Assembly (NCBI GenBank): GCA_965206285.1
Contig: OZ242205.1
Location: 4,564,478-4,628,477, forward strand
DNA length: 64,000 nt
Reading direction: 5' to 3'
Source: Vicinamibacterales bacterium
GTDB lineage: Bacteria; Acidobacteriota; Vicinamibacteria; Vicinamibacterales; UBA8438
Shown one piece after another: positions 1,718 to 52,700 of this stretch; within the stretch, counting starts at the first letter, position 1; the number at the start of each line of letters is the position of its first letter. Under the pieces are notes generated by a model. It saw only the letters and a program-made list of their open reading frames with translations. It was not told the DNA's origin and made no database searches. Both the position numbers and the translations under genes were made by a program.

Positions 1718-1916
1718 CGCTCCGGTCGGTCTCTCCGTCGAGGTTCCCGGATGCAGCGGAAAAGCGGAAGTCCGGCGCCTCGGCGGTCCCGGCGCACGGC
1801 CCGGAGCGGCGGGTCGCGTCCCGCGTCCCGGTCGGCCCGGACACCGCCGCCTCGCGGCGCCGCTGCTCGCCCGACCAACCCCGCCGGGAGTCCGCGCCGT
1901 TCCGCGGCGCAGGCGC

Positions 1917-3362
1917 CTACTCGCCGTCGTCGTCGGTCTCGACGCGCTGCAGCGTCTCGCCCGCGAGATAGCGCTCGTACTGCTCGTCGGTCATGAACGC
2001 GACGTCCGTCCAGCCGTGGCCCATCTCGTCCATGGTCCGCGACCCCCAGCCGATCCAGGCGGAGGGGTCGGGGTTGTGCCGGTTGTTGGCGGTGTTGTCG
2101 TGCCAGGACACCGTATGCAGAATCGTGCCCTTCGGGAACGCGTGCGGCTTCTCGTAGGCGTAGACGATCTGCCACGTCTGCTCGTAGTTGGTGACGTCGG
2201 TCAGGATCTCGCGGCGGCCGTCGACGTGAATCGCCTCGAGCAGCATCCGGCTGCCCCGGAAGTGCATGTGGGGCTGGAAGCTGAGGATCAGCGCGGCCTG
2301 CGGCAGCGGCCAGAACCGCTCGTGGCGCGCCACCGTGTCGGGCGGAATGCTCAGGAGGGCGACCCCGTTCAGGGTGTTGTCGTCGATGAGGAGCCCGGTC
2401 GGCATCCTCTCCGCGTGCAGGTCGAGGTCGTGGCCGGCCGCGAGCAGCCGGTCCTCGACCGCCTCGCGGTTCAGCTTCCAGTCGTGCCCGATGCCGGTGC
2501 GGATGCGGTGGGCGGTGACGATCAGCTCGGGCGCCTGTCCCTTGGGATAGAACTTGATGCCGACCTTCTGCCGGTCGATGGTCTCCTCGCCCCACGGATG
2601 GTAGTGGGGGGCGAACCGGAACAGCCCCCCCGCCGGCAGCTTCCGCCCCGTGCCCTCGGGATAGTACTGGCCGGTGCTGCCCATGGCGTACTCGATGAGG
2701 TCGATCTCGCGGGTGTTCGACCCCATGCCGAGCCGGAACTCCTCGCGGTCCTCCGCCGTCTCCGGCACGCTGACGTACACGTGCGAATGGTGCACGCAGC
2801 AGTAGGCTTCGGGAATGATCTGCACCCACTTCACGTACCGGTCCTCGGTCAGCCCCGGATCGACGATCTCGGACGGATAGAAGTCGGCGCCCTCGGCGGG
2901 AATCTCGAAGCCCTTCTCCATCTGGACGATCAGGTCGGGCTCGCCGTAGGTCCACTCGTCCAGCGCCGCGAACTCGAGCGGGGGCGGCGCGTCGGCCGGA
3001 TTGCCCCGCGGCGCTCCGGCCGCGACCCACGCGACGATGGTGGCGATCTCGGCGTCGCTCAGCGACGGGTCGGCGACGTACTCGCCGATGCTGCGGTCGA
3101 GGTGCCACGGCGGCATCTGCCGGGCGACGACGCGATCGCGAATCGCCCGCGCCCACGGGCGGGTCTCCTCGTACGTCAGCAGCGACATCGGGGCCCCGGT
3201 GCCCGGCCGGTGGCATTTCTGACACGAGCGCTGCAGCAGGGGCAGCACGTCGCGGGTGAAGGTGGCGCCGTCGTTGGACTGGCCCGCGGCGGCGGCGTTC
3301 GGGCCGAAGAGACCGGCCGCGAGGGCGATGACGACGGCAACGCGTGTCGAGACGACGCGCAT
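1917..3362 (-). CDS. secreted c-type haem protein with a Cu(II) ascorbate-type monooxygenase-like His pattern
   Basis: 481-aa ORF with a signal-like N-terminus (MRVVSTRVAVVIALAAGLFG). A CxxCH site lies in FTRDVLPLLQRSCQKCH. His clusters CCVHHSH, PHYHPW and QPHMHFRGS, plus later Met residues, follow the HH..H..HxH..M order of PHM/DBH-type copper sites. The product assignment is inference. Confidence 0.55.
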   Translation of the reverse strand: MRVVSTRVAVVIALAAGLFGPNAAAAGQSNDGATFTRDVLPLLQRSCQKCHRPGTGAPMSLLTYEETRPWARAIRDRVVARQMPPWHLDRSIGEYVADPSLSDAEIATIVAWVAAGAPRGNPADAPPPLEFAALDEWTYGEPDLIVQMEKGFEIPAEGADFYPSEIVDPGLTEDRYVKWVQIIPEAYCCVHHSHVYVSVPETAEDREEFRLGMGSNTREIDLIEYAMGSTGQYYPEGTGRKLPAGGLFRFAPHYHPWGEETIDRQKVGIKFYPKGQAPELIVTAHRIRTGIGHDWKLNREAVEDRLLAAGHDLDLHAERMPTGLLIDDNTLNGVALLSIPPDTVARHERFWPLPQAALILSFQPHMHFRGSRMLLEAIHVDGRREILTDVTNYEQTWQIVYAYEKPHAFPKGTILHTVSWHDNTANNRHNPDPSAWIGWGSRTMDEMGHGWTDVAFMTDEQYERYLAGETLQRVETDDDGE

Positions 3363-4511: not shown

Positions 4512-4640
4512 TGCGCGACCTTGCGGCCTTGCCCGCCAGCGAGCCGACCAGGCCGCCGATCCCGGGCAGTAGCTTGCGGTCGCGTTGGGAGTTTCGCTGG
4601 CGCGAGACCCCTACGGCGACGATTTCCGGGTCAGGTCCCA
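4512..4640. repeat. composite copy of the dispersed intergenic repeat family
   Basis: Contains GCGCGACCTTGCGG, GATCCCGGGC, GGTCGCGTTGGGAGTTTCGCTGGCGCG and CGGCGACGATTTCCGGG. Each module recurs at other intergenic sites (9903, 14467, 51051, 14521, 24084, 29370, 29785). Confidence 0.65.
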
Positions 4641-9868: not shown

Positions 9869-9927
9869 TCACAGGAGCTTCGCGCCGGCGAAAACTCCGG
9901 ATGCGACCGCAAGGTCGCGCGGGCGCA

Positions 9928-10063
9928 GGCAAGCCCCCTGGCGCCCGGGATCGCCGGGTTGGCTGTCCCGCGCCCTGGGGCTGTAGACTGCCCTCGGCAA
10001 GCCCCTCGCGCCCGGGATCACCGGGTTGGCTGTCCCGCGCCCGGGGGGCTGTAGACTGCCCTG
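9928..10063. repeat. 2 x 68 bp tandem repeat in a divergent intergenic region
   Basis: Unit 1 (9928-9995) and unit 2 (9996-10063) share GGCAAGCCCC..GCGCCCGGGATC[G/A]CCGGGTTGGCTGTCCCGCGCCC..GGGGCTGTAGACTGCCCT with a few substitutions or indels. It is preceded by GCGACCGCAAGGTCGCGC (9903-9920), the reverse complement of the module at 4513. Confidence 0.85.
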
Positions 10064-13168: not shown

Positions 13169-14329
13169 ATGAACGTCGGCATCGTCTGTTATCCCACCGT
13201 GGGCGGCAGCGGCATCGTCGCCACCGAGCTCGCCAAGGCGCTGGCCCAGCGCGGTCACGAGGTTCGGCTCATCAGCACCGAGATGCCGTTCCGGGGGCCG
13301 GACTTTCAGGTCGGGCTGGTCTTCCACCCCGTCCAGACCCCCGGCTATCCGCTTTTTCGCGAGCCGCAGCATCTGTTGTCGCTCGCCAACAAGATCGTCC
13401 AGGTCAGCCGCGAGCACCGCCTGGACGTCATCCACGCCCACTACGCCATCCCGCATGCCGCCGCCGCCTATCTGGCGCGGCAGATTCTCGCGAATGCCGA
13501 AGGCGCGAACGTGCCGCGGGTCATCACCACCCTCCACGGCACCGACGTGACGCTGATCGGCAGCGACAGCTCGTACTCGGAGACCGCGGCGTTCTGCATC
13601 GATCAGTCCGACGGGGTGACCGCGGTGTCGGAGAGCCTGCGCGCCGACACCTATCAGCAAATGTCGGTGCGCGCCGACATCCGGGTGATTCCGAACTTCC
13701 TCGATTGCGAGATCCACCGCCGCTCGGAGGACCCCGCGTTGCGCGCCCGTTTCACCGGGGACGACGACGCGGTGCGTCTCGTGATCCACGTGTCGAACTT
13801 CCGGCCGGTGAAGCGGGCCGAGGCGGTGATCGACATCTTCGACCGCATTCGCCGGCGCGTGCCGTCGAAGCTGCTCCTCGTCGGCGACGGGCCGGACCTC
13901 GACCGGGCGGGCCGCCGGGTACGGAACCTCGGGCTGACGGATGCCGTCGTCCAATTGGGCGAGCAGGAACAGGTGGTGCCGCTGCTGTCGGTCGCGGATC
14001 TGTTCCTGCTGCCGTCGGCGCAGGAGAGCTTCGGGCTGGCCGCGCTGGAGGCGATGGCGTGTCAGGTGCCGGTGGTGGCGTCCCGGGTCGGCGGGCTTCC
14101 CGAGGTGATCGAGAACGGAATCACCGGCTTTCTGCACGACCCGGACGACCTCGATGGCATGGCGTCGAGCGGCGTGGCCGTGCTGTCGGATCCCGCCCGG
14201 CATCGGGCGGTCGCGGCGGCCGGGCTCACCGCCGTCCACCAGCGGTTCTGCGCCAACGCCATCGTACCGAAGTACGAGGCGTTCTACACCGAGGTGCTCG
14301 GGCGCGAACCCATGCCCGCGACGCGCTAG
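13169..14329 (+). CDS. bshA: N-acetyl-alpha-D-glucosaminyl L-malate synthase (GT4 glycosyltransferase, bacillithiol biosynthesis)
   Basis: 386-aa ORF. The N-terminus MNVGIVCYPTVGGSGIVATELAKALAQRGHEV closely parallels the Bacillus BshA N-terminus (ITCYPSVGGSGVVATELGK..GHE). C-terminal GT4 motifs are ESFGLAALEAMACQVPVVASRVGGLPEVI. Confidence 0.8.
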   Translation: MNVGIVCYPTVGGSGIVATELAKALAQRGHEVRLISTEMPFRGPDFQVGLVFHPVQTPGYPLFREPQHLLSLANKIVQVSREHRLDVIHAHYAIPHAAAAYLARQILANAEGANVPRVITTLHGTDVTLIGSDSSYSETAAFCIDQSDGVTAVSESLRADTYQQMSVRADIRVIPNFLDCEIHRRSEDPALRARFTGDDDAVRLVIHVSNFRPVKRAEAVIDIFDRIRRRVPSKLLLVGDGPDLDRAGRRVRNLGLTDAVVQLGEQEQVVPLLSVADLFLLPSAQESFGLAALEAMACQVPVVASRVGGLPEVIENGITGFLHDPDDLDGMASSGVAVLSDPARHRAVAAAGLTAVHQRFCANAIVPKYEAFYTEVLGREPMPATR

Positions 14330-14461
14330 TGGTATGTCCCAGAAATAACCTTGCGGTTGCTCGCATGTGGCCGAACGGGTCGTCGAACGGCGATTCCGGC
14401 CCGAACCGTCGAAACGCCTCGCAGATCAAGCGTCAACTTGTTCAAGTGACACACCACTAGC
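14324..14461. repeat. 14-bp inverted repeat pair flanking a ~110 bp lower-GC segment
   Basis: GCTAGTGGTATGTC (14324-14337) against GACACACCACTAGC (14448-14461) gives 13/14 complementary positions. The interior carries CTTGCGGTTGCTCGC and CGGCGATTCCGGCCC, which resemble modules of the dispersed family. Confidence 0.6.
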
Positions 14462-14466
14462 GCGAT

Positions 14467-14631
14467 CGCGCGACCTGACGGTCGCGTTGGACGTTTCGCT
14501 GGCGCGGGCGCAAGCTCCTGGCCCGGAAATCGTCGGCTGTGGCTCCGATTGCCGCTCAACCAACCCTGCCAGGAGTCTGCACGGCTTCTGCGGCTCAGAC
14601 TCCTGGCCCGGAAACCGTTGCCTGCGGCTCC
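14467..14631. repeat. composite copy of the dispersed repeat family (two tandem half-elements around an 11-bp-arm hairpin)
   Basis: Contains CGCGCGACCTGACGGTCGCGTTGGACGTTTCGCTGGCGCG. This is followed by CTCCTGGCCCGGAAATCGTCGGCTGTGGCTCC..CAACCAACCCTGCCAGGAGTCTGC, and by CAGACTCCTGGCCCGGAAACCGTTGCCTGCGGCTCC. CCAGGAGTCTG and CAGACTCCTGG are inverted. Confidence 0.75.
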
Positions 14632-14709
14632 TTGCTGCCCGACGGGCCCTCGGCCTCGGCCACGCCGCCCCGTCCGCGAGGCCCCGCCACCGGGTATACT
14701 CGGAAGACG

Positions 14710-21091: not shown

Positions 21092-21123
21092 GACGGCGCC
21101 AACCTCGAGAATCGGCCGGTAAG

Positions 21124-21537
21124 CTATGGACCGAGCAGGCGAACCAGATTGGGGCGGTCGACGCGGCGGGCGGCGCGCGCGTCGGCCGTGAGCCAGACCC
21201 CGTCACACAACGCCGCGAGCGCGACATATACGGCGTCGTACCCCGACAGCTTCCACCGCCCGGCGAAATCCGCCGCGAGCGCAAGGAGATCGTGGCCATT
21301 CCCGACGCGCGTCATCCCCAGCGCTTCGACGAGCGCCATCGCCTCCTGCACCTTCGCCGGCCGACTCGCGGGCAGGCGGCACAGAACCGCCAGCAGCTCG
21401 TTCATGAAGAGCTCCGGCACCAGATAGGGCGACGGGTCGCGTTCGATCTCGTCGAGCACCCGCGCCGCCTCGTGGACGAGCGGCTCGCCTGCCACGAACC
21501 ACTTGAGCGCGACCGACGCGTCGACGACGATGGTCAC
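21124..21537 (-). CDS. vapC: PIN-domain toxin (VapC-like)
   Basis: 137-aa ORF. N-terminal IVVDASVALKW and C-terminal YDAVYVALAA..LTADARAARR carry the PIN acidic residues. ATGA overlap with the upstream antitoxin gene. Confidence 0.8.
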   Translation of the reverse strand: MTIVVDASVALKWFVAGEPLVHEAARVLDEIERDPSPYLVPELFMNELLAVLCRLPASRPAKVQEAMALVEALGMTRVGNGHDLLALAADFAGRWKLSGYDAVYVALAALCDGVWLTADARAARRVDRPNLVRLLGP

Positions 21538-21803
21538 GACCGCAGGTCGCGGAGCATGTCGAGAGTGGTCCCCGTGGCGGGCGGATCGAACGAGAGCTGC
21601 TTGAGCCGCGCGACCACCTGCCGCCGCCGATCGTCCGCGTCCCGGTCGACGAACCGCTCACGATAGTCCTTGAGACTCACGAGGGCGGCCGCCGGGGTTC
21701 GCCCTCGGCACACCAGGATCGGCGCGCCGTTGCGCTCGAGCTGGTCGAGCACCTTGCCGAGCGATTGACGAAGCTCCAACGCGTTCACCGTTTCCACGGA
21801 CAT
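21534..21803 (-). CDS. Phd/YefM-type antitoxin
   Basis: 89-aa ORF. ELRQSLGKVLDQLERNGAPILVCRGRTPAAALVSLKDY fits the Phd/YefM N-terminal fold. Coupled to the PIN toxin gene. Confidence 0.7.
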   Translation of the reverse strand: MSVETVNALELRQSLGKVLDQLERNGAPILVCRGRTPAAALVSLKDYRERFVDRDADDRRRQVVARLKQLSFDPPATGTTLDMLRDLRS

Positions 21804-21866
21804 GTCATAACACTTGCACAGTATTGTGTCAAAATCACCTCGCGGTCGCCTTCACGGTGGAGACCA

Positions 21867-24077: not shown

Positions 24078-24242
24078 CCAGTCCGGAAATCGCCGCCTGC
24101 GGCTCCTCCGCCGCCTTGCGGCGCCGCCCTCCCAACCAACCCGGCTCGGGAGCCGGCGCCTCCCTGCATGAGGCGGCGCCTTCCCTGCACGAGACAGCGC
24201 CTCCCCTGCACGAGGCAGCACCGTCTTCTACGGCGCAGACTC
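24078..24242. repeat. dispersed-family repeat element filling the hisH-hisB spacer; contains a 3 x ~21 nt tandem
   Basis: GTCCGGAAATCGCCGCCTGCGGCTCC..CCCAACCAACCC..three units of GCGCCTYCCCTGCAYGAGRC (24156-24217)..CTACGGCGCAGACTC. It has the same module order as the copy at 29299-29400, in reverse orientation. Confidence 0.75.
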
Positions 24243-24246
24243 GCAG

Positions 24247-24834
24247 CTACAACAACCCCTTGGTGCTCGGCAACTGCTTCGCCATGCGGTCGTCCTTGTC
24301 GCACGCGACCCGCAGCGCCCGCGCGAACGCCTTGAACAGCGCCTCGACCTTGTGGTGGCTCGACCGGCCGTAGAGCACCTTCAGGTGCACGTTGGCCCGC
24401 GCCCCCTGGGCGAACCCCTCGAAGAAGTCGTGCAGCAGCTCGGACTGCAGATCGCCGACGAGCCTGACGCGCAGGCGCAGGTCGACCACCGCGTGGGGGC
24501 GCCCGCTGAGGTCGATGGCCGCGACGGCGAGGGTCTCGTCCATCGGCATGATGAAGTAGCCGGCGCGGTTGATGCCCCGCCGCGACCCGATCGCCTTCGC
24601 GACCGCCTCGCCGAGGGCTATCCCGACATCCTCGACGGTGTGGTGCTGGTCGACGTCGAGGTCCCCGGCGGCGTCGATCTGCAGGTCGAAGGCGCCGTGC
24701 CGCGCCACGAGCTCGAGCATGTGGTCGAGAAAGCGGATCCCGGTGCTGACCGTGTACCGGCCGCGCCCTTCGAGACCCAGCCGGATGGTGATCTGCGTCT
24801 CGGTGGTCCGCCGCTCGATCCGTGCGCGTCTCAT
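24247..24834 (-). CDS. hisB: imidazoleglycerol-phosphate dehydratase
   Basis: 195-aa [33 protein letters not shown] and [19 protein letters not shown] are canonical IGPD motifs. Confidence 0.9.
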
Positions 24835-28511: not shown

Positions 28512-29296
28512 GCACACCGATGTCCACACCGCGGCGGACGATCCGCCCCCGGACCCTTTCGCGGCGCCGCCTGCTGGCGCACGTCCCCGCCCTCGGCGGG
28601 CTGCTGGCGGCCGGATGCTCCCGCGATGCCTACCTGCCGCCGCACGTCCGGGGCGGCCTGGTGGGCGCGGCCGACGTGCTGACCATGAGCACCAGCCGTC
28701 TGCTGCTCCGGGACCAGCCCCTGGCGCGCGAGTACCAGCCGAGCGACATCGCCCCCGACTTCCCGACCTGGGGGCAGACCAATCCCCGGGACGAGGAATA
28801 CCAGGCCCATTTGCGGGACGGGTTCCGCGACTGGCGCCTCCCGGTGAGCGGTCTCGTCGGCCGGCCGGTGTCGCTCTCGCTCGACGACATCCGGGGGCTG
28901 CCCGCGCGCACGCAGATCACCGCCCACGTCTGCGAGCAGGGCTGGTCGGCGATCGCCCAGTGGACCGGCGCGCCGCTGCTGCGGGTGCTCGAGGCGGCGG
29001 GCGGGGTGCAGCCGGGCGCGCGGTACGTGATGCTCGACACCGTCGACGGCTGGTACGAGGGCATCGACCTGTTCGAGGTCGTGCATCCGCAGACCATCCT
29101 CGCCTACGGCCTCAACGGCGAGGATCTGCCGGTCGGCAACGGCGCGCCGCTGCGGCTCCGGGTCGAGCGCCAGTGCGGGTACAAGAACCTGAAGTTCCTG
29201 AAGTCCATTCAGGTCGTGGACTCGATGGCCGGCTTCGGCCAGGGCACCGGCGGCATCAACTCCGACTGGGGATTCCACTGGTACGCCGGTGTCTAG
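28508..29296 (+). CDS. molybdopterin-dependent oxidoreductase, sulfite-oxidase fold (MsrP/YedY-like)
   Basis: Last 262 aa of ORF 27818..29296. A Tat-like SRRRLLAHVPALGGLLAAGCS, with a possible lipobox. Motifs TAHVCEQGWS, NGEDLPVGNGAPLRLRVERQCGYKNLKFL. Confidence 0.8.
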   Translation: MSTPMSTPRRTIRPRTLSRRRLLAHVPALGGLLAAGCSRDAYLPPHVRGGLVGAADVLTMSTSRLLLRDQPLAREYQPSDIAPDFPTWGQTNPRDEEYQAHLRDGFRDWRLPVSGLVGRPVSLSLDDIRGLPARTQITAHVCEQGWSAIAQWTGAPLLRVLEAAGGVQPGARYVMLDTVDGWYEGIDLFEVVHPQTILAYGLNGEDLPVGNGAPLRLRVERQCGYKNLKFLKSIQVVDSMAGFGQGTGGINSDWGFHWYAGV

Positions 29297-29298
29297 CC

Positions 29299-29400
29299 GT
29301 CTGCGCCGTAGTAGCAGTGGAAGCCGGGCAGGCTCCTGGCAGGGTTGGTTGGGGCGGTAAGCGGAGCCGCAAAGGCGGCGATTTCCGGGCCGGGAGTCCG
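29299..29400. repeat. dispersed-family repeat element
   Basis: GTCTGCGCCGTAG..GGCTCCTGGCAGGGTTGGTTGGGGCGGTAAGCGGAGCCGCAAAGGCGGCGATTTCCGGGCCGGGAGTCC. It is near-identical in module order to the reverse complement of 14515-14580. Confidence 0.8.
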
Positions 29401-29744
29401 TGGCAAGGGCCCCGTTGCATTCGACCGGCGCTGCGTCCTGCGTGGACCGCGTTGCTCCGCGGCTGCGTTGCTCGCGGTTGTCTGGCAACAGGCGCCCTTG
29501 CCACGCCGGCGCCTCACCGGCCTCGGTGCAACACGCGGTTTCCACCACGGGCTTCCAACGGTGGTCGCGGGGGGCTCAGGGGGCTCTCGTCCCGTCCGCC
29601 ACGCGTCGCGTGAGGGCTCTCGGGCCCGCCGTTTCCGGCCCGACCTCGCCCCGGTGAGTCCGGCGGAAGGCCGGCCGTACGTTGACGCTCGCACTGGCGA
29701 CCAAGTGCCGATAAGCTAGGGGACTGCCCGGTGGCGACGGAGCG

Positions 29745-29800
29745 GACTTCTGCAGGTTGGTTGGACGAAGAGGCGGAGCCCGAAGGCGGCGATTTCGGGC
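29745..29800. repeat. partial dispersed-family repeat
   Basis: CTGCAGGTTGGTTGGACGAAGAGGCGGAGCCCGAAGGCGGCGATTTCGGGC parallels 29335-29390. Confidence 0.7.
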
Positions 29801-29895
29801 TGGACAATTGCATGTACGACATGACATCGCGCGCGCCGGGACATCGATTCGGACCGTACCTGTCGAGGCCGCGGCTCGCGGCGGTCTGCCTGCGG

Positions 29896-32800
29896 ATGCG
29901 GATGCCCGCGATGGTCCTCGCCGGGGCGGCGCTCATCGCCCCGGCGGCGCCCGCGGTTGGACAGAGGTCTCCCACGGTGGTGGTCGCGCCGTTCACGAAC
30001 GTGAGCCGGCAACCCGCCGATGACTGGATCGGCGCGGGCATCGCCGAGACGATCGCCGTCGATCTGCAGGACGCGCCGGACTGGAGGTCGTCGGACACCT
30101 CGCCATCGCGCCGAAGCGTATCGGCTACCGCGGCGCCGCGAACGCCCCCGACCGCGCGGGCGTCCTCGACGCCTATCACCGACAGGGCGTCGTCTGGATG
30201 ATCGACGGCACCCTGCAGCGGTTGGGAGACGCCCTGCGCATCACCACCCGGATCGTGGACGTCGAGACCGGCGCGGTCGAGTTCGGCACTCGGGTCGACG
30301 GCGGGATAGCCGACATCTTCGGAATCCAGGACGAGGTCGCCTCGGTGCTCGCGGCACGGCTCTCGACGGGTGCGGGCGGCCGGTTCACCCCAAGTAGACG
30401 GCCCGCCCCGGACCGATTCGCCCCGGACCGGTTCGTTCCGGACCGGCCCGTGCCGAACCGACCCCCACCGGGGGTCCGGCCCGCGCCGAACCGGCCCCCA
30501 GCCGGGGTCCGGCCCGCGCCGGGGCCGGTGCCCCCGCGCTTCGTCGCCGCGGTTCCCCCCGCCGCGCCCGAGGCTCGGCCCGAGCGGCCCGTCAGCGGCG
30601 CGCTGGCCTTCGGCGGCGGTTCCGCCGTCCGGCCCGCGCCGGCCGGGGACGCCGCCCCGCGCCCGCCCGTCCGGGGAGGCGGGGGATTCGCCCCGGCCCT
30701 CCTGGGTCGTCCGACCGCGGTCATCGAACGGACCGTCACGCCGCCCGAGATCGACGGCCGGCTCGACGACTCGGTCTGGGAGACCGCCACCCACGTCACG
30801 AACTTCATCCAGATCGCGCCGATCGAGGGCGCGCCGGGGTCGGAGGAGACCGAGGTGTGGATGGCGTACGACAGCGAGAACCTCTACTTCGCCTTCTACG
30901 CCCACTACACGCGGCCCGAGACCATGCGCATCAACCGGGCCGACCGCGAGGAGATCCGCGGCGACGACCGCATGGCGGTCCTGTTCGACCCGTTCCTCGA
31001 CCAGCAGCGCGCGTATCAGTTCGAGGTGAACGGCTACGGCGTGCAGGCCGACTCGCTCGTGAACGCCGACGGCAGCAGAGGGTTCTCGCGGTCGAGCGGC
31101 AGCTCGTCGGCGACCCGCGGCAGCAGTGGCGGCGGCGGCTCGCGGGGCGGCGGCGGCAGCGGAATGGGCAGCTCGGGGCAGTTCGGCGTCCGCGGCGACC
31201 AGTCGTGGGACGCGCTGTACGACAGCGGCGGCCTGGTCGTCGCGGACGGCTGGACGGCCGAGATGCGCATTCCGTTCAAGAGCCTGCGGTATCCGTCGCG
31301 CGGCCGGGGCCAGCCGCACCGCTGGGGCTTCCAGATCATCCGGATCATCCGGGACAAGTCGGAAGCGCAGTCGTGGTCGCCGATCTCGCGGGGGGTGGCC
31401 GGTCAGCTCACGCAGTTCGGCGTGCTCGAGGGCCTGTCCGATCTGTCCCTGAGCCGCAACCTCGAGCTCCTGCCGGAGGTGACCGGGTTCAGGCTCGGTG
31501 CGCTCGACACCGGCACCGGCGAGTACGCCACCAACGACCCGGCCGGGGAGCTGGGATTCGGCGTCAAGTACGGGATCACCCCCAACCTGACCGCGGATTT
31601 CACCGTCAACCCCGACTTCTCCCAGATTGAGTCGGACCGGCCGCAGGTCGAGACCAACCAGCGGTTCGCGCTGTTCTATCCCGAGCAGCGCCCGTTCTTC
31701 CTCGAGGGGCAGGAGATCTTCCAGACCGCGACGCCGCTGACCCTGGTGCACACCCGCACCATCGTCGACCCCCGCTTCGGCGGCAAGCTGACCGGCAAGG
31801 TCGGCCAGGCCACGCTGGGGTTCGTCGTGGCCGACGACGAGGCGGCGGGCCGTCTCGACGACAGCGCCCACCCGCAGTACGGCACCACCGCGCAGACCGT
31901 CCTCGGACGCGCCCGCTACGACTTCTACGCCGAGTCGTATCTCGGCGCCATCATGACCACGCGCGCCAGTTCGGCGCCGACTACAACCGGGTGGCCGGGG
32001 TCGACGGGCGGTTCCGGTTGGGCCGGACCCACCGGATCAGCTTCCTCGCGGCGGGCTCCGAGACGGAGGACGGGGTCCTCGGCTCGCTCTCCGGGGGGGT
32101 GATCGAGGCGGACTTCTCGAAGCAGGGGCGCAACCTCAGCTACAACGTCGCCCACAGCCGCATCGATCCGGGGTTCCTCACCAACACCGGCTTCCTGCCG
32201 CGCGTCGACCTCCAGCAGACCAGCGGCACCGCGTCGTACCGGTGGTGGCCCGAGTCGACCCTCATGACCTGGGGCCCCTCGGTGACCTATCTGCGCCTCT
32301 ACGACCACGCCGGCGTGCTGCAGGACGAGCAGGTCCAGGGCACCGCGAGCTTCTCGTTCCGCAACAACATGGCCATCACCGGCATGGTCAACCGCGACCT
32401 CGAGCGCTACGGGGCGATGGACTTCCGCAAGACGGGCTTCGGCTTTTTCGGGGTCATGAGCGCGCGCCTCCTCTCGATATACGGCGGCTACAACTTCGGC
32501 GACGGCATCTTCTACGACCCGGACAGCCCCTACATCGGGCGATCGACCGTCGGCAACGTCAACTTCCGCTTCCAGCCCACGTCCCGGCTGCGGACGGAGT
32601 TCAACATGGTCTCGAGCGACTTCGTCGATCCGGTGGCCGAGGCCGACATCTTCAACGTCAGGATCTTCCGCACCCGCACCACCTACCAGTTCACCGACCG
32701 GCTGCTGGCGCGCTACATCCTGGAGCACAACACCGCGGCCGCGACCCTCGGCAACAACGTGCTCTTCACCTATCGGGTCAACGCCGGCACCGTCATCTTC

Positions 32801-32923
32801 ATCGGCTACGACGACCGCTACCGGCAGGGCATGCTGATCGACGACATGCTGTTCCCGACCGCCGAGCTGCTGCGGACGAACCGGGCCTTCTTCGGTAAGA
32901 TCTCGTATCTTTTCCGGTACTGA
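29896..32923 (+). pseudogene. large secreted/outer-membrane protein: TolB-N/LpoB-like domain, Pro-rich linker and CBM9-like/DUF5916 domain, interrupted by two 1-nt frame changes
   Basis: Frame 1 (29896 to about 30080): MRMPAMVLAGAALIAPAAPAVGQ..VVVAPFTNVSRQPADDWIGAGIAETIAVDLQDAP. Frame 0 (30081 to about 31966): LEVVGHLAIAPKRIGY..GVVWMIDGTLQRLGDALRITTRIVDVETG..PPEIDGRLDDSVWE..NPDFSQIESD.. Frame 2 (31967-32923): QFGADYNRVAGVDGRFRLG..ISYLFRY. Sense continues across both junctions only if 1 nt is restored at each. Confidence 0.7.
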
Positions 32924-33040: not shown

Positions 33041-34228
33041 ATGAGCGAAACGGATCCCGGTATCACGCTCGGCATCGAGGAGGAGTTCTTCCTCGTCGAT
33101 CCGGAGTCGCGCGACCTGCTGTCCGATCCGGACCGGCGCATCTTCGAGGCGTGCGAACGCAACCGCGGGCCGCACAACGCGGTGCCCGAGTTTCTCCGCT
33201 CCCAGATCGAGACCGGCACGAAGGTCTGCCGGTCGGTGGCCGAGGTGCGGCAGGCCCTCCGGGAGACCCGCCGCCTCGTCATCGACGCGGCGGCGGAGCA
33301 CGGTGCGTCGGTCATGGCCGCTTCGACGCATCCGTTCGCGGCGTGGCGGGCGCAAATGGTCACGCCGCGGGAACGCTACGAGCGGTTCGCGGTCACCTTC
33401 CAGGAGAGCCTGCGGCGGCTCGTCGTCGGCGGCATGCACATCCACGCCGGCTTCGGCGACGCCGACTCGCGCATCCGGGTCATGACCGCGCTCCGGCGCT
33501 ACCTGCCGCTGCTGCACGCGCTGTCGACGTCGTCGCCGTTCACCGGCGGCCGCGAGACCGGGTTCAAGTCCTACCGGCTGACCATCATGGGGGCGATTCC
33601 GCGTACCAACCTGCCCGGCCCGCTGTCGTCCCAGGCCGATTTCGACCGCATCGTGGGAACCTATCAGCGCATGAAGTTCATCGAGAGCGCGAGCGAGCTT
33701 TGGTGGGACGTCCGCCCCTCGCAGGCCTTTCCCACCGTGGAGATGCGGATCTGCGACGTCTGCCCGCGCATCGACGACGCGGTGGGCATCGCGGCGCTCT
33801 ACGCGTGCCTGATCCGTCGCCTGATGCGGCTGGATCGCGAGGGCCGGCTGCCTGCAGAGCCGCCCACCGAGATCATCGCCGAGAACCGGTGGCTCGCGCA
33901 GCGCTACGGCGTGCTCGCTTTTTTCGGCGACGAGGGGAGCGACGGCCGCGTCGACATCGAGGACCACGCCGCCGCGCTGGTGGAGCAGTTGACCGATGAC
34001 GCCCGCGCCCTCGGCTGCGAGCCCGAGCTGCGCGGAGTGCTCGGCATCATCCGCGACGGCGCCGGCGCGGACCGTCAGATCGACCACTTCCGCCTTCGCC
34101 GGCTGGAAGGCGACACCGAGGAGGAGGCGTTGCGGTCCGTCGTCGATCTGGTGGTCGCCGAAACAGAGTTCCCCATTGCAAAAGGAATTACATCGTTCGA
34201 CTCAAGTCCGCCTATCGGAAGATTATGA
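33041..34228 (+). CDS. ybdK: carboxylate-amine ligase (glutamate-cysteine ligase family 2, YbdK-type)
   Basis: 395-aa ORF. TLGIEEEFFLVD, SQIETGT, GMHIHAG and WWDVRPS..PTVEMRICD match GCS2/YbdK blocks. Confidence 0.8.
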   Translation: MSETDPGITLGIEEEFFLVDPESRDLLSDPDRRIFEACERNRGPHNAVPEFLRSQIETGTKVCRSVAEVRQALRETRRLVIDAAAEHGASVMAASTHPFAAWRAQMVTPRERYERFAVTFQESLRRLVVGGMHIHAGFGDADSRIRVMTALRRYLPLLHALSTSSPFTGGRETGFKSYRLTIMGAIPRTNLPGPLSSQADFDRIVGTYQRMKFIESASELWWDVRPSQAFPTVEMRICDVCPRIDDAVGIAALYACLIRRLMRLDREGRLPAEPPTEIIAENRWLAQRYGVLAFFGDEGSDGRVDIEDHAAALVEQLTDDARALGCEPELRGVLGIIRDGAGADRQIDHFRLRRLEGDTEEEALRSVVDLVVAETEFPIAKGITSFDSSPPIGRL

Positions 34229-34244
34229 CGTGACGGACCACCTA

Positions 34245-34354
34245 GGAGTCTGCGCCGCAGGAAATTACCGCCCCCATATATAGCGGGGTTGGAACTCTAC
34301 GACTACCATATAGGGCCTGATCGCGCCCAAAAATCGTTCTGCGGCGCAGACTCC
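34245..34354. repeat. MITE-like element with perfect 16-bp terminal inverted repeats (archetype of the dispersed family)
   Basis: GGAGTCTGCGCCGCAG (34245-34260) and CTGCGGCGCAGACTCC (34339-34354) are exact reverse complements. The AT-richer core carries GAAATTACCGCC, GGGGTTGG and two CCATATA motifs. Confidence 0.85.
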
Positions 34355-34371: not shown

Positions 34372-35124
34372 TTGAAGGTAGCACGATCTGTCGCCGCCGC
34401 GGGCGGGGGTGTGCGCGGCGGTGCCGAACGGCCCCTGGCCGGCGCGTCGTCCATCGGCGAGCTCAACGAACGGTCGCTGCACCGGGCCCTGAAGGCGCGC
34501 TACGCCGTCGCCGGCGGCGCGACCGAGCAGGCCGTCGACGGCTTCGTCGCCGACGTGGTCGCCGACGGCCGCATCGTCGAGGTCCACACCGGCAGCTTTC
34601 GGGCCCTCAAGCGCAAGCTGCCGCGACTGCTCGAGCGGTATCCGGTCACGCTGGTGTATCCGATCGCCCGCGACCGGTACATCGTCAAGGTGCCGGCCGA
34701 CCCGAACGCGCCTCCGAGCCGGCGCAAGTCGCCGAAGCACGGCTCGGTCTTCCAGGTCTTCTCGGCCCTCGCCAGTATTCCGGCCCTGCTCGCGCATCCC
34801 AACCTGACGCTGGAGGTCGTGATGACCGTCGAAGAGGAGGTCCGTGCGAAGAACGGGCGCGGCAGTTGGCGACGCCGCGGCTGGGCCATCCTGGACCGCC
34901 GGCTCGTGGACGTCGTCGAGACTTGCACCATCGCGTCGATGGCCGACCTGTTCGCTCTGGTCGACGCCGATGTGCCCGAGCCGTTCACGACCAGCGACCT
35001 CGCCGCCGCCATGAGCTCGCCGCGGCGCCTCGGCCAGCTGGCCGCGTTCTGCTTTCGCGAAGGCGGCGTCAGCGAGACCTGCGGCAGGAACGGCAACGCC
35101 CTGGTGTACCGGCGCGTTGATTGA
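34372..35124 (+). CDS. conserved hypothetical protein, possibly a PD-(D/E)XK-like nuclease fold
   Basis: 250-aa ORF. ELNERSLHRALKARY..VDGFVADVV..GRIVEVHTGSF..LKRKLPRLLERYPVTLVYPI..RRKSPKHG. The D..E-x-H/K-like arrangement is my inference only. Confidence 0.55.
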   Translation: MKVARSVAAAGGGVRGGAERPLAGASSIGELNERSLHRALKARYAVAGGATEQAVDGFVADVVADGRIVEVHTGSFRALKRKLPRLLERYPVTLVYPIARDRYIVKVPADPNAPPSRRKSPKHGSVFQVFSALASIPALLAHPNLTLEVVMTVEEEVRAKNGRGSWRRRGWAILDRRLVDVVETCTIASMADLFALVDADVPEPFTTSDLAAAMSSPRRLGQLAAFCFREGGVSETCGRNGNALVYRRVD

Positions 35125-35129
35125 ACCTC

Positions 35130-35376
35130 GCCTCGACGCCCAGCCGCCCCAGTCGCCTCCCGGTGGCGTCGGCGAGAATCTGCGGCAAGAACGGCAACGC
35201 TCTTGTGTACCGACGCGCCGGTTGACTTGGGACAGAGATCGATACAGTTTGCCCAGACTGCGCGCTGGCGCAGCCCGTTGTGCGGTTGGTGCGGTTGGCG
35301 CGCCTGGCACACGCACCCAAGTTGGTTTCCGTCAGCGTCCTGAGCTTGGCCTCGACGCCCAGCCGCCCCACTCGCC
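35130..35376. repeat. degenerate duplication of the 3-prime end of the preceding gene, plus a 28-nt direct repeat
   Basis: Gene end 35062-35124 (GGCGGCGTCAGCGAGACCTGCGGCAGGAACGGCAACGCCCTGGTGTACCGGCGCG) recurs, degenerate, at 35162-35226. GCCTCGACGCCCAGCCGCCCCA[G/C]TCGCC occurs at 35130-35158 and 35349-35376. TGCGGTTGG is doubled at 35281-35298. Confidence 0.75.
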
Positions 35377-35404
35377 GCCCGATTGCGAGTGATGCGACGG
35401 CCGG

Positions 35405-45166: not shown

Positions 45167-45198
45167 TCGCTCTCGCTCCCGCCTGCCGTGGTCGCGGC

Positions 45199-45226
45199 GT
45201 GACCGGCATCGGCCGATGCCGGTCAC
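45199..45226. promoter_or_regulatory. 28-bp perfect palindrome in the regulator-modA divergent region
   Basis: GTGACCGGCATCGG|CCGATGCCGGTCAC is exactly self-complementary. It is followed at 45240-45290 by a low-GC stretch, CGAATCGAATCATACTATATTGTTCAGAATGAT. Confidence 0.7.
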
Positions 45227-45273
45227 GCCGAATCGTTTGGCGAGTCGAATCGAATCATACTATATTGTTCAGA

Positions 45274-50859: not shown

Positions 50860-51050
50860 CCATGCCTCCACGTTCGCTGACGACGGTATCCGCCGGCCGC
50901 GGTCCGGACCGAGAGCGACCTTGGGACGGTGACGGAAACGACCTTGCCGTGCCCAGCGCGCGCGACCAACGGGCTGTGCCCGGGGTGCGGTTGTCGACTT
51001 CATCTCGGTCACCGTCCTTGCCGTCGCGCGGGGAGCCTGTGCCGCAGAAG

Positions 51051-51093
51051 TCTCGCGTCAGCGAAACTTCCAACGTGACCGCCAGGTCGCGCG
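51051..51093. repeat. dispersed-family module (reverse orientation)
   Basis: TCTCGCGTCAGCGAAACTTCCAACGTGACCGCCAGGTCGCGCG is the reverse complement of the CGCGCGACCTG.CGGTC.CGTTGGA.GTTTCGCTG.CGCG module seen at 14467 and 4576. Confidence 0.7.
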
Positions 51094-51133
51094 GTCGCGC
51101 TGGCTCCGAACCGGCGCGCCCGGAGGCCGCTGC

Positions 51134-52438: not shown

Positions 52439-52700
52439 GGCGGGCGATCATATCGCGGATGCCGGTGCGTTCCTGGCGGGCCGGGCGTCCCGAGGAGCCC
52501 GTGGTCGAACCGCGGGTTGCAGCGAGATCGGCGAGGGCGCCAGCGGCAAGGCGCTACGCAGTTCCGCAGCGCAACGTATTCCGCGCGTGATGCACGTCGG
52601 TCGAATGCCAGCGGGGCTCGCGACTCGAGCTTCTGGTACGCCCCCGCGCCCCGGGGTTGACCGCGCGGCGTGGCCGCGCCATCCTCGGGACGGCCACCCG

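Follow-up and report, generated by a model that had tools for sequence, protein, structure and literature searches.

Dispersed and recombining hairpin repeats in the intergenic spacers of Vicinamibacterales, gained and lost between close strains

The stretch analysed here, which we call the window, comprises 64,000 nucleotides of the Vicinamibacterales contig OZ242205.1 (positions 4,564,478 to 4,628,477, GC content 71%), and many of its spacers hold short repeats related to one element at 34245-34354, the archetype. As the initial annotation described it, this element has perfect 16-nt inverted arms (34245-34260, GGAGTCTGCGCCGCAG; 34339-34354, CTGCGGCGCAGACTCC) with an AT-richer core of 78 nt between them. 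It folds far more stably than shuffled sequences on both strands, with a z of about −6. Cross-genome similarity at this site starts earlier than the coordinates first given, at 34167/34213, within the end of the upstream open reading frame (ORF). The segment there, module G (34167-34242, plus strand), is a remnant of the right end of an IS630-family insertion sequence (IS) and matches the right end of an intact IS in strain L121. It joins the archetype at ...CCACC-TA-GGAGTC and gives the upstream GCS2 ORF its last codons and its TGA stop. What had been viewed as a single element is instead a mosaic of at least five module types, among which the archetype class is a minority. We find that these modules form a real and previously undescribed family across the order Vicinamibacterales, and that copies are gained and lost between near-identical strains.

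The dominant unit, unit A, was defined from all copies listed in register (78 aligned) and consists of a hairpin, H, followed by a tail, T. It is about 83 nt long; copies stand alone or follow one another head-to-tail every 82-84 nt, and H and T are also found as solo copies. H is a 37-nt palindrome with two GGAGTCTGCGCCGYAG arms (consensus CYAG-GAGTCTGCGCCG-TAGAA-CGGCGCAGACTC-CTRG) that carries GYRG in its loop, not in the canonical end position. Compensatory covariation supports H as a hairpin structure: 10 of its 14 pairs changed on both sides, and 53 compensatory cells were counted against 16.7 ± 3.7 in column shuffles (none of 500 reached the observed value) and 11-18 when partners were slid, with G.U outnumbering A.C by about 109 to 32 on the strand shown. 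T (AGGGTTGGTTGGGCGGCAATCGGAGCCGCAGGCGACGATTTCCGGGCYAG) is a 48-nt tail that is almost invariant in many species, a constancy that is partly an ascertainment effect because the loci were collected by an exact T-core pattern. The helices predicted for T never covary, an AATCG/CGATT stem is broken by a common AAGCG variant, and because T never varies its structure cannot be inferred. We saw no sigma-70-like promoter site in T or class C, manual spacing checks included. H is followed by AGGGTTGGTTGGG, with no run of T, and a terminator scan of the archetype region returned only a trivial 5-bp stem; an intrinsic terminator was rejected as a candidate for lack of a U/T tract after H.

Module B, with 29 copies in the collected DNA and 4 in the window, is laid out as a GYAG tag, directly a hairpin B1, then CAA and a second hairpin B2, with loops that are mostly GNRA-like. 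Both stems are 7-10 bp long and show compensatory variants, and in nearly all copies GCGCC-GTAG or GCGCC-GCAG stands directly 5' of the B1 stem. Class C, that of the archetype, places H arms around the conserved 78-nt core, within which TATATAG and CTATATA form a further inverted repeat. Full copies of 108-112 nt that have the two arms and the core in common number 8, from different genomes, which is few beside the 213 matches to unit A in the same DNA. The terminal inverted repeats (TIRs) of class C are 16-18 nt long and perfect in the window. H and family F, which comprises longer hairpins, also have inverted ends; H+T, T and B have none. H, T, B, C and F are distinct modules that re-combine. 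Every H arm also holds a GANTC site (GAGTC/GACTC; for example, window 34246-34250 and 34349-34353), and the junctions between modules create CTAG. Both motifs are well known as sites of methylation or restriction and belong to the rare tetranucleotides of GC-rich genomes, and a link to DNA methylation is possible.

The recurrent motifs proposed in the initial annotation stand far above chance in the window. Against dinucleotide shuffles GGTCGCGTTGGANGTTTCGCTGGCGCG has 3 matches (0.00 expected), GTCTGCGCCGYAG 5 (0.70), GGGTTGGTTGG 5 (0.73) and GCGCGACCTTGCGG 3 (0.30); the 26-nt GGAGCC...TTTCCGG pattern has 1 ungapped match, and 6 copies of the whole unit are recovered by a profile model. Beyond the window, when the species representatives of GTDB were scanned for exact occurrences of the 24-nt T core, GGAGCCGCAGGCNNCGNTTTCCGG, more than 109 matches came up where about 0.1 would be expected by chance (21 specified bases in 596 Gb), and almost all of those listed lie in Vicinamibacterales/Vicinamibacteraceae (Acidobacteriota) metagenome-assembled genomes (MAGs) of many species. 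A profile hidden Markov model (HMM) of unit A found its 213 matches in about 1 Mb of collected DNA, and the 6 units in 64 kb would extrapolate, roughly and from one window, to several hundred in a genome of about 6.3 Mb. The suggestion of hundreds of copies genome-wide is therefore borne out, and the motifs are neither confined to the window nor explained by chance similarity of GC-rich DNA. Hairpins are slightly but significantly more alike within genomes than between them (identity 0.803 versus 0.774; 0 of 1000 permutations), as amplification would produce. No copy was found in 2.9 million viral contigs, and among the papers that could be searched none prints these sequences or describes repeats in Vicinamibacter. 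At its gathering scores Rfam 15 matches nothing in the window, and more permissive scans of canonical copies and of module G returned chance-level matches only, so a known Rfam RNA family was set aside. A CRISPR-like array was likewise rejected despite the period of about 83 nt, since the 'spacers' are themselves conserved modules, as were attC/integron sites, for which GTTGGGC resembles an R' core but the inverse core upstream is missing and the flanking genes are housekeeping genes. Canonical units also occur in CAXXKS010000001.1 (L024, L067), a 2.9-Mb contig of a MAG labelled as Alphaproteobacteria, which points either to a wrong label on this bin or to passage of the family between phyla.

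Window proteins were found identical on long-read metagenome contigs of several close strains, and comparisons between strains with flanks 96-99% identical reveal the turnover of copies directly. Window positions 29298-29538 form a 241-nt strain-specific insertion containing a unit A directly past the TAG stop at 29294-29296 (29297-29394, plus strand) and an F-like long hairpin (29395-29538, plus strand; arms GTGGCAAGGGC and GCCCTTGCCAC). It is missing in L116 and L117, which read GGTGTCTAGC followed directly by TTTCACC. A 77-nt F hairpin stands after CTAGC at window position 20323 in L117 and L121, at a site that is empty in the window and in L116, and the family F hairpin at window 52474-52640 (arms CCCGTGGTCGAACCGCGGGTTGCA and TCGAATGCCAGCGGGG) is absent in L002 and L037. 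In the spacer past a transporter gene, seven strains present three module combinations, with B in either orientation. Two reference species differ in the same manner: where L056 has GACTAG joined to ACATCC, L092 has GACTAG, then unit A up to GGGCTAG, then class C up to GACTCCTAG, then H.

These comparisons reveal a simple regularity, in that new copies land right after a pre-existing TAG or CTAG, usually a stop codon, without visible target duplication. TAG is present at the empty sites and therefore predates insertion. A check for target-site duplications had been proposed, and none is present at the two cleanest strain-specific insertions, the clean empty/filled pairs at window 29298-29538 and L117 2491-2567. 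YAG not only precedes most modules but also ends them (H in ...CTGG(C)AG, T in ...CCGGGCYAG, B in ...GCGCYAG and C in ...GACTCCYAG). Module B, with its own GTAG, can be found set precisely into a reversed T, and this chimera recurs at unrelated loci (window 4612, L003/L004 and L058).

The relation to genes is equally distinctive, with units placed at the 3' ends of genes and for the most part in sense orientation, as judged from rough gene calls based on GC content at third codon positions (GC3). The gene 5' of the unit is co-directional in 105 of 125 cases, spacers between tandem genes hold 58 sense and 12 antisense units, and convergent spacers hold 35 units against 6 in divergent ones. Module B shares the preference for convergent over divergent spacers (8 versus 1) and has no sense bias. 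Among first units, about 40% begin no more than 20 nt from a stop codon. When the upstream gene is co-directional (66 first units), its stop TAG directly adjoins GAGTC in 20 cases, and the stop is TAG in 71% versus 40% of all called genes. TAG precedes H at 10% versus a background of 0.3% (33-fold). HMM matches are intergenic in 137 cases and 'inside' rough gene calls in 24. The initial statement that all copies are intergenic is essentially right for the window, where they lie in spacers between GC3-called genes, with the qualification that several abut or overlap a stop codon (1917, 24247, 29296).

Six copies of unit A in the window are found by the profile HMM, with E values from 1e-19 to 4e-5. 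Family members are present at every site cited in the initial annotation, and a sensitive self-BLAST returns the same sites; its list missed the copy at 1834-1920, and the segment it gave as 9903-9927 is part of a longer module B. The overlooked unit A (1834-1920, minus strand; nhmmer E = 5e-9; 27 cross-genome matches) adjoins the TAG stop of gene 1917-3362 (minus strand) at a distance of 0. At 4513-4640 (minus strand) a reversed module B is fused into the 3' part of T (GGCGACGATTTCCGGGTCAGG on the plus strand), CTACG being joined to GCGACGATTTCCGG at the junction, and the B2 hairpin of this chimera is split by a 51-nt insert at 4527-4577. The module B at 9872-9927 (plus strand) has GGAGCTTCGC-GCCG-GCGAAAACTCC as B1 and GCGACC-GCAA-GGTCGC as B2. 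A partial module B (14459-14516, minus strand) lies next to a short head-to-tail array at 14517-14643 on the same strand, in which a unit A (14517-14606) is accompanied by another, partial tail (14602-14643). For this array, which is antisense to both neighbouring genes, nhmmer gives E = 1e-19 and 4e-5, and there are up to 133 cross-genome matches. The unit A at 24079-24242 (minus strand), whose hairpin has three GCGCYGYCTCRTGCAGGGRAGGC sub-hairpins of about 24 nt, begins 4 nt past the TAG stop of gene 24247-24834 (minus strand) and is also in L116 and L117 with small length differences. A degenerate, old unit A at 29716-29801 (plus strand; nhmmer E = 1.4e-6) is common to L117. At 51038-51101 (plus strand) stands a module B with a GCAG head, and other strains have A+B, or a long A+B reversed, in the orthologous spacer.

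For the archetype site no clean empty junction was obtained in relatives, L001 being too diverged and L116 and L117 carrying replacement DNA. Window 34118-34354, compared with L116 18156-18626 and L117 15336-15806, is a replacement hotspot: these two strains have DNA unrelated to it, about 480 nt in length and with small toxin-antitoxin-like ORFs in antisense, and the window has the GCS2 3' end, the IS630 end remnant and the archetype, with GCS2 called as a fused 513-aa product. Another strain-specific segment, the insert of about 775 nt at 21093-21866 with two small minus-strand ORFs, corresponds to about 50 nt in L116 and L117, and in L120 and L121 its place is taken by an annotated PhdYeFM antitoxin and PIN toxin pair, VapBC-like. 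Directly after the module B at 9872-9927, a divergent promoter region contains two copies of a 67-nt tandem repeat (9928-10062, 93% identity), of which L121 has one copy, in the manner of a variable-number tandem repeat; this repeat was not repeatedly found in other genomes. Between divergent genes at 45195-45230 lies a perfect palindrome of 36 nt, GGCGTGACCGGCATCGGCCGATGCCGGTCACGCC, after which the sequence becomes unusually rich in AT; the palindrome may be an operator or a bidirectional terminator. The DUF5916 gene (30198-32923) is read as two overlapping ORFs (30198-32102 and 31991-32923) where L117 has a single ORF of 1026 aa, reflecting either a frameshift, a pseudogene or a sequencing error, and its 5' part holds 33-nt tandem repeats (30441-30523). 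In the region 35079-35387, another copy of the 3' end of the DUF8091 gene, stop included, lies about 100 nt downstream of the first (35079-35124 and 35180-35225), and a second duplicated segment recurs at a distance of 219 nt (35122-35168 and 35341-35387).

How might such a family be built and spread? The account towards which we lean, at somewhat better than even odds, treats the modules as a superfamily specific to this lineage, made of mobile DNA that is hairpin-based, non-autonomous and moved in trans, which would resemble in its organisation repetitive extragenic palindromes (REPs) and bacterial interspersed mosaic elements (BIMEs), with some members closer to transposable elements of the miniature inverted-repeat type (MITEs). 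If every insertion recreates its YAG target, then head-to-tail arrays, nesting in the GTAG of the H loop and chimeras that subsequently spread would all follow. The mobilising enzyme would act in trans and be encoded elsewhere in the genome. For H+T and B, the grammar would best fit a single-strand, duplication-free cut-and-join of the HUH or REP-associated tyrosine transposase (RAYT) type, because the hairpins are GYAG-tagged, duplications are absent, insertion occurs into a hairpin loop and these modules have no inverted ends. Once inserted, sense copies would give the upstream mRNA a 3' end with a stable hairpin of 16 bp, and selection on this effect probably shapes which copies survive; a role of sense copies as 3' hairpins at the RNA level is plausible and compatible with either route of transposition. 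Of the three natures first suggested for the repeats, a non-autonomous transposon and a REP-type element both find support, and a recombination hotspot is given low weight.

Several observations weigh against this account. The two cleanest recent insertions follow CTAGC and not CTAG, and the inserted DNA neither begins with GAGTC nor has YAG at its end. Because of covariation between the 5' YAG and the 3' arm (TAG..CTA in 13 of 22), YAG may belong to the element and not to the target. The perfect inverted ends of H and class C would be explained more simply by a DDE transposase. A mechanism using single-stranded DNA of the lagging strand would predict a replichore bias of orientation, and about 19 independent sites in OY282382.1, a complete chromosome, show none (about 4 plus and 3 minus in the positive-skew half, about 6 and 6 in the negative-skew half, a small sample). 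Finally, the check for a RAYT or other cognate transposase recovered no RAYT and no matching autonomous IS in the 1.06 Mb examined: a motif regular expression, tblastn with 120 PF01797 proteins and a profile HMM on six-frame ORFs gave 0 PF01797/RAYT matches, and ORFs bracketed by inverted units encode, by Pfam, only housekeeping or unknown proteins. This absence is weak evidence, as 1.06 Mb covers part of the genomes and such genes are usually single-copy. A database search with RAYT baits retrieved proteobacterial proteins only, with no link to Vicinamibacterales. A bolder version, which we regard as doubtful, is that, across the order, an unrecognised cut-and-join activity, guided by YAG and leaving no duplication, writes modules behind stop codons, with T a domesticated recognition site that has a regulatory role at mRNA 3' ends. 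Such an enzyme could be a divergent HUH protein or another type, distinct from both the RAYT-REP and the IS630-MITE systems, and T could be recognised by it or by a host RNA- or DNA-binding protein.

A different source of movement lies close at hand in the same spacers, and we consider it a serious rival for the inverted-repeat members, the archetype included, and a possible but less likely origin of the family as a whole. The inverted-repeat members, class C and H, would then be MITEs of the IS630/Tc1-mariner type, moved by a DDE transposase into the TA of CTAG with duplication of TA; H would represent a TIR-loop-TIR in collapsed form, with T, B and H+T either derivatives that arose by rearrangement or passengers, and an element starting with G and ending with C would recreate CTAG on both sides and thereby give rise to arrays and nesting. 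IS630 elements prefer CTAG targets, and an intact member of the family (L121 11166-12478; HTH_32 and DDE_3 domains, with an apparent frameshift between the ORFs) has inserted into the CTAG at the stop codon of window gene 13169-14329, where TA is perfectly duplicated, in a spacer that is empty in the window. A 142-nt MITE with TIRs of about 30 nt and a TA duplication (L120 17156-17297) occupies a CTAG at the hotspot 20323, which is also empty in the window, and the IS end remnant at 34167-34242 adjoins the archetype through a shared TA. Class C itself has perfect TIRs of 16-18 nt, a uniform length of 108-112 nt, flanks of T(A/G)...(T/C)A in 11 of 14 cases, one of them TA...TA (found in only 1 of 7 copies), and an end (TIR + ACGATTT..GGGC) that the 3' half of T resembles by direct reading. 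The transposase family is hugely abundant, with thousands of relatives at least 76% identical in public data; the top 120 homologues of the L121 transposase are all at or above this identity, too close to be informative about distant relatives with matching ends. The archetype itself may well be an IS630-type MITE. Extending this to the remaining modules is harder, however, since the TIRs of the IS and MITE (GTGGTKCGTCAC, GTGTCCCG) differ from GGAGTCTGCGCCG, no long element bounded by H arms exists in the collected DNA, where the spacing of inverted arms has its mode only at 100-150 nt, and the dominant unit H+T, like B and T, lacks inverted ends. The two cleanest recent insertions of the repeats have no TA at the right junction, whereas genuine IS630 events in the same strains do, the flank consensus CA...TG is an inverted and not a direct repeat, and a palindromic CTAG target alone cannot yield a sense bias of 58 to 12. 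In the same context, L116 10938-13742 is a strain-specific insert of about 2.8 kb in the repeat-rich spacer downstream of an Oxidored_molyb gene, and its 414-aa ORF with a weak integrase-core (rve) match suggests that it is probably another IS.

The remaining readings do without mobility as the driving force. The modules could instead be host-functional RNA or DNA elements, H being a 3'-untranslated-region stabiliser, a terminator or a translation-coupled regulator and T the binding site of a conserved protein or RNA, all maintained by selection with mobility incidental. We think this improbable as the primary explanation, although the strong sense bias and preference for gene 3' ends, the excess of G.U over A.C on the sense strand, the GNRA-like B2 loops and a T that stays near-invariant across many species while H drifts with compensation would all suit it, as would the closeness of many first units to stop codons. 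E. coli REPs at such distances from stop codons are reported to affect translation. The same RNA argument has been made for REPs (PMC3733652). Copies in the window are visibly decayed, however, which indicates that most are not under strong constraint, and close strains differ in presence or absence even beside housekeeping genes; H lacks a U-tract and any match to an Rfam family, the absence of covariation leaves an RNA structure of T unsupported, B has no sense bias, and the constancy of T is in part ascertainment, as noted above. Such a function is compatible, as a secondary layer, with the mobile modules we favour. Far less credible is a family that does not move at all and arises by local duplication, slippage at palindromes, and gene conversion or recombination between existing copies, the recombination-hotspot alternative. 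Precise loss of H between CAG repeats (L084 versus L091), copy-number differences between strains in arrays and in the 67-nt tandem, the unrelated DNA found at the archetype's replacement hotspot and chimeric junctions in GGCG microhomology are all in its favour; hundreds of copies dispersed over unrelated loci in dozens of species, clean gains at sister-strain empty sites without flanking direct repeats, and the excess similarity within genomes are not. Chance resemblance of GC-rich, low-complexity intergenic DNA might be invoked for a window of this composition, in which generic repeat finders give many spurious matches of 65-75%, but it is refuted by the motif counts (3-5 observed versus 0.0-0.7 in shuffles), by the HMM E values and by the concentration of T-core matches in one bacterial order, and retains practically no probability.

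The order concerned, Vicinamibacterales, comprises abundant, almost uncultured soil Acidobacteriota, and very little has been described of how their genomes change. Present hundreds of times per genome and differing between strains of about 96-97% identity, the repeats are a major source of micro-heterogeneity and a ready marker for strain typing, and copies that supply or overlap stop codons could complicate assembly and gene calling. The rule that modules follow YAG and end in YAG offers a simple account of the mosaic arrays. If a cognate HUH enzyme is involved, REP-RAYT-like systems would reach a new phylum with a new architecture, and if IS630 is the mover instead, the family would amount to a MITE radiation of unusual diversity.

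Among known systems, the closest parallels are the REPs and BIMEs of Enterobacteria and the REPINs of Pseudomonas, GTAG-tagged palindromes moved by RAYT, an IS200-like HUH-Y1 transposase. Like these, the present family has short GC-rich palindromes with a GYRG tag in hundreds of extragenic copies, a preference for unidirectional and convergent spacers, G.T/G.U stem pairs, compensatory sub-families, BIME-style mosaics, strain polymorphism, a vertical, lineage-restricted distribution and no target duplication. We took the REP criteria, the canonical layout and the GTAG definition from a 2013 survey, in which GTAG REPs were unreported in Acidobacteria and only TIR-flanked 'TIRYT' genes were listed there (PMC3733652). 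Imperfect stem-loop palindromes of 20-40 nt are present (H, at 37 nt, and B1 and B2), copies are numerous, extragenic and enriched downstream of genes and in convergent spacers, and module B has the canonical layout of GTAG followed directly by a 9-bp stem. Module B thus satisfies the sequence definition of a REP; membership of the REPs is not established, given the lack of a RAYT in the 1.06 Mb and the position of the H tag in the loop. H further departs from REPs in carrying its GTAG there and not at the 5' foot and in its stem of 14-16 bp versus the usual 6-9, and unit A does so in its invariant, non-palindromic 48-nt tail and in arrays that run head-to-tail and not head-to-head or tail-to-tail.

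The likeness to IS630/Tc1-mariner MITEs, which insert at TA, preferentially within CTAG, resides in class C, with its perfect TIRs, length of about 110 nt, position beside CTAG and TA-like flanks, and in the presence, within the spacers that it occupies, of an active IS630-family IS and of genuine MITEs of the IS630 type. Its TIRs differ from those of the IS found, however, a TA duplication is not demonstrable and H+T, T and B are without inverted ends, and for the events tested, class C apart, membership of the MITEs fails on target duplication. The palindrome-associated transposable elements of the IS200/IS605 group likewise carry a hairpin in subterminal position, insert 3' of a specific short sequence in an orientation fixed to the target, and have neither inverted ends nor duplication; in the present case, by comparison, no TnpA/TnpB partner was found and OY282382.1 has no replichore (lagging-strand) bias. 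BOX elements of Streptococcus pneumoniae and the mycobacterial interspersed repetitive units (MIRUs) are also modular and intergenic, lying between the genes of operons, and each repeat combines a few box types with internal tandem modules in variable number. They have no sequence relationship to our family and are not tied to a stop-codon TAG or CTAG, and the reading-frame logic of MIRUs is absent from units with a period of 82-84 nt. Whether the modules move by an HUH-type or an IS630-type mechanism, the family falls within a known class of elements and is not a new class.

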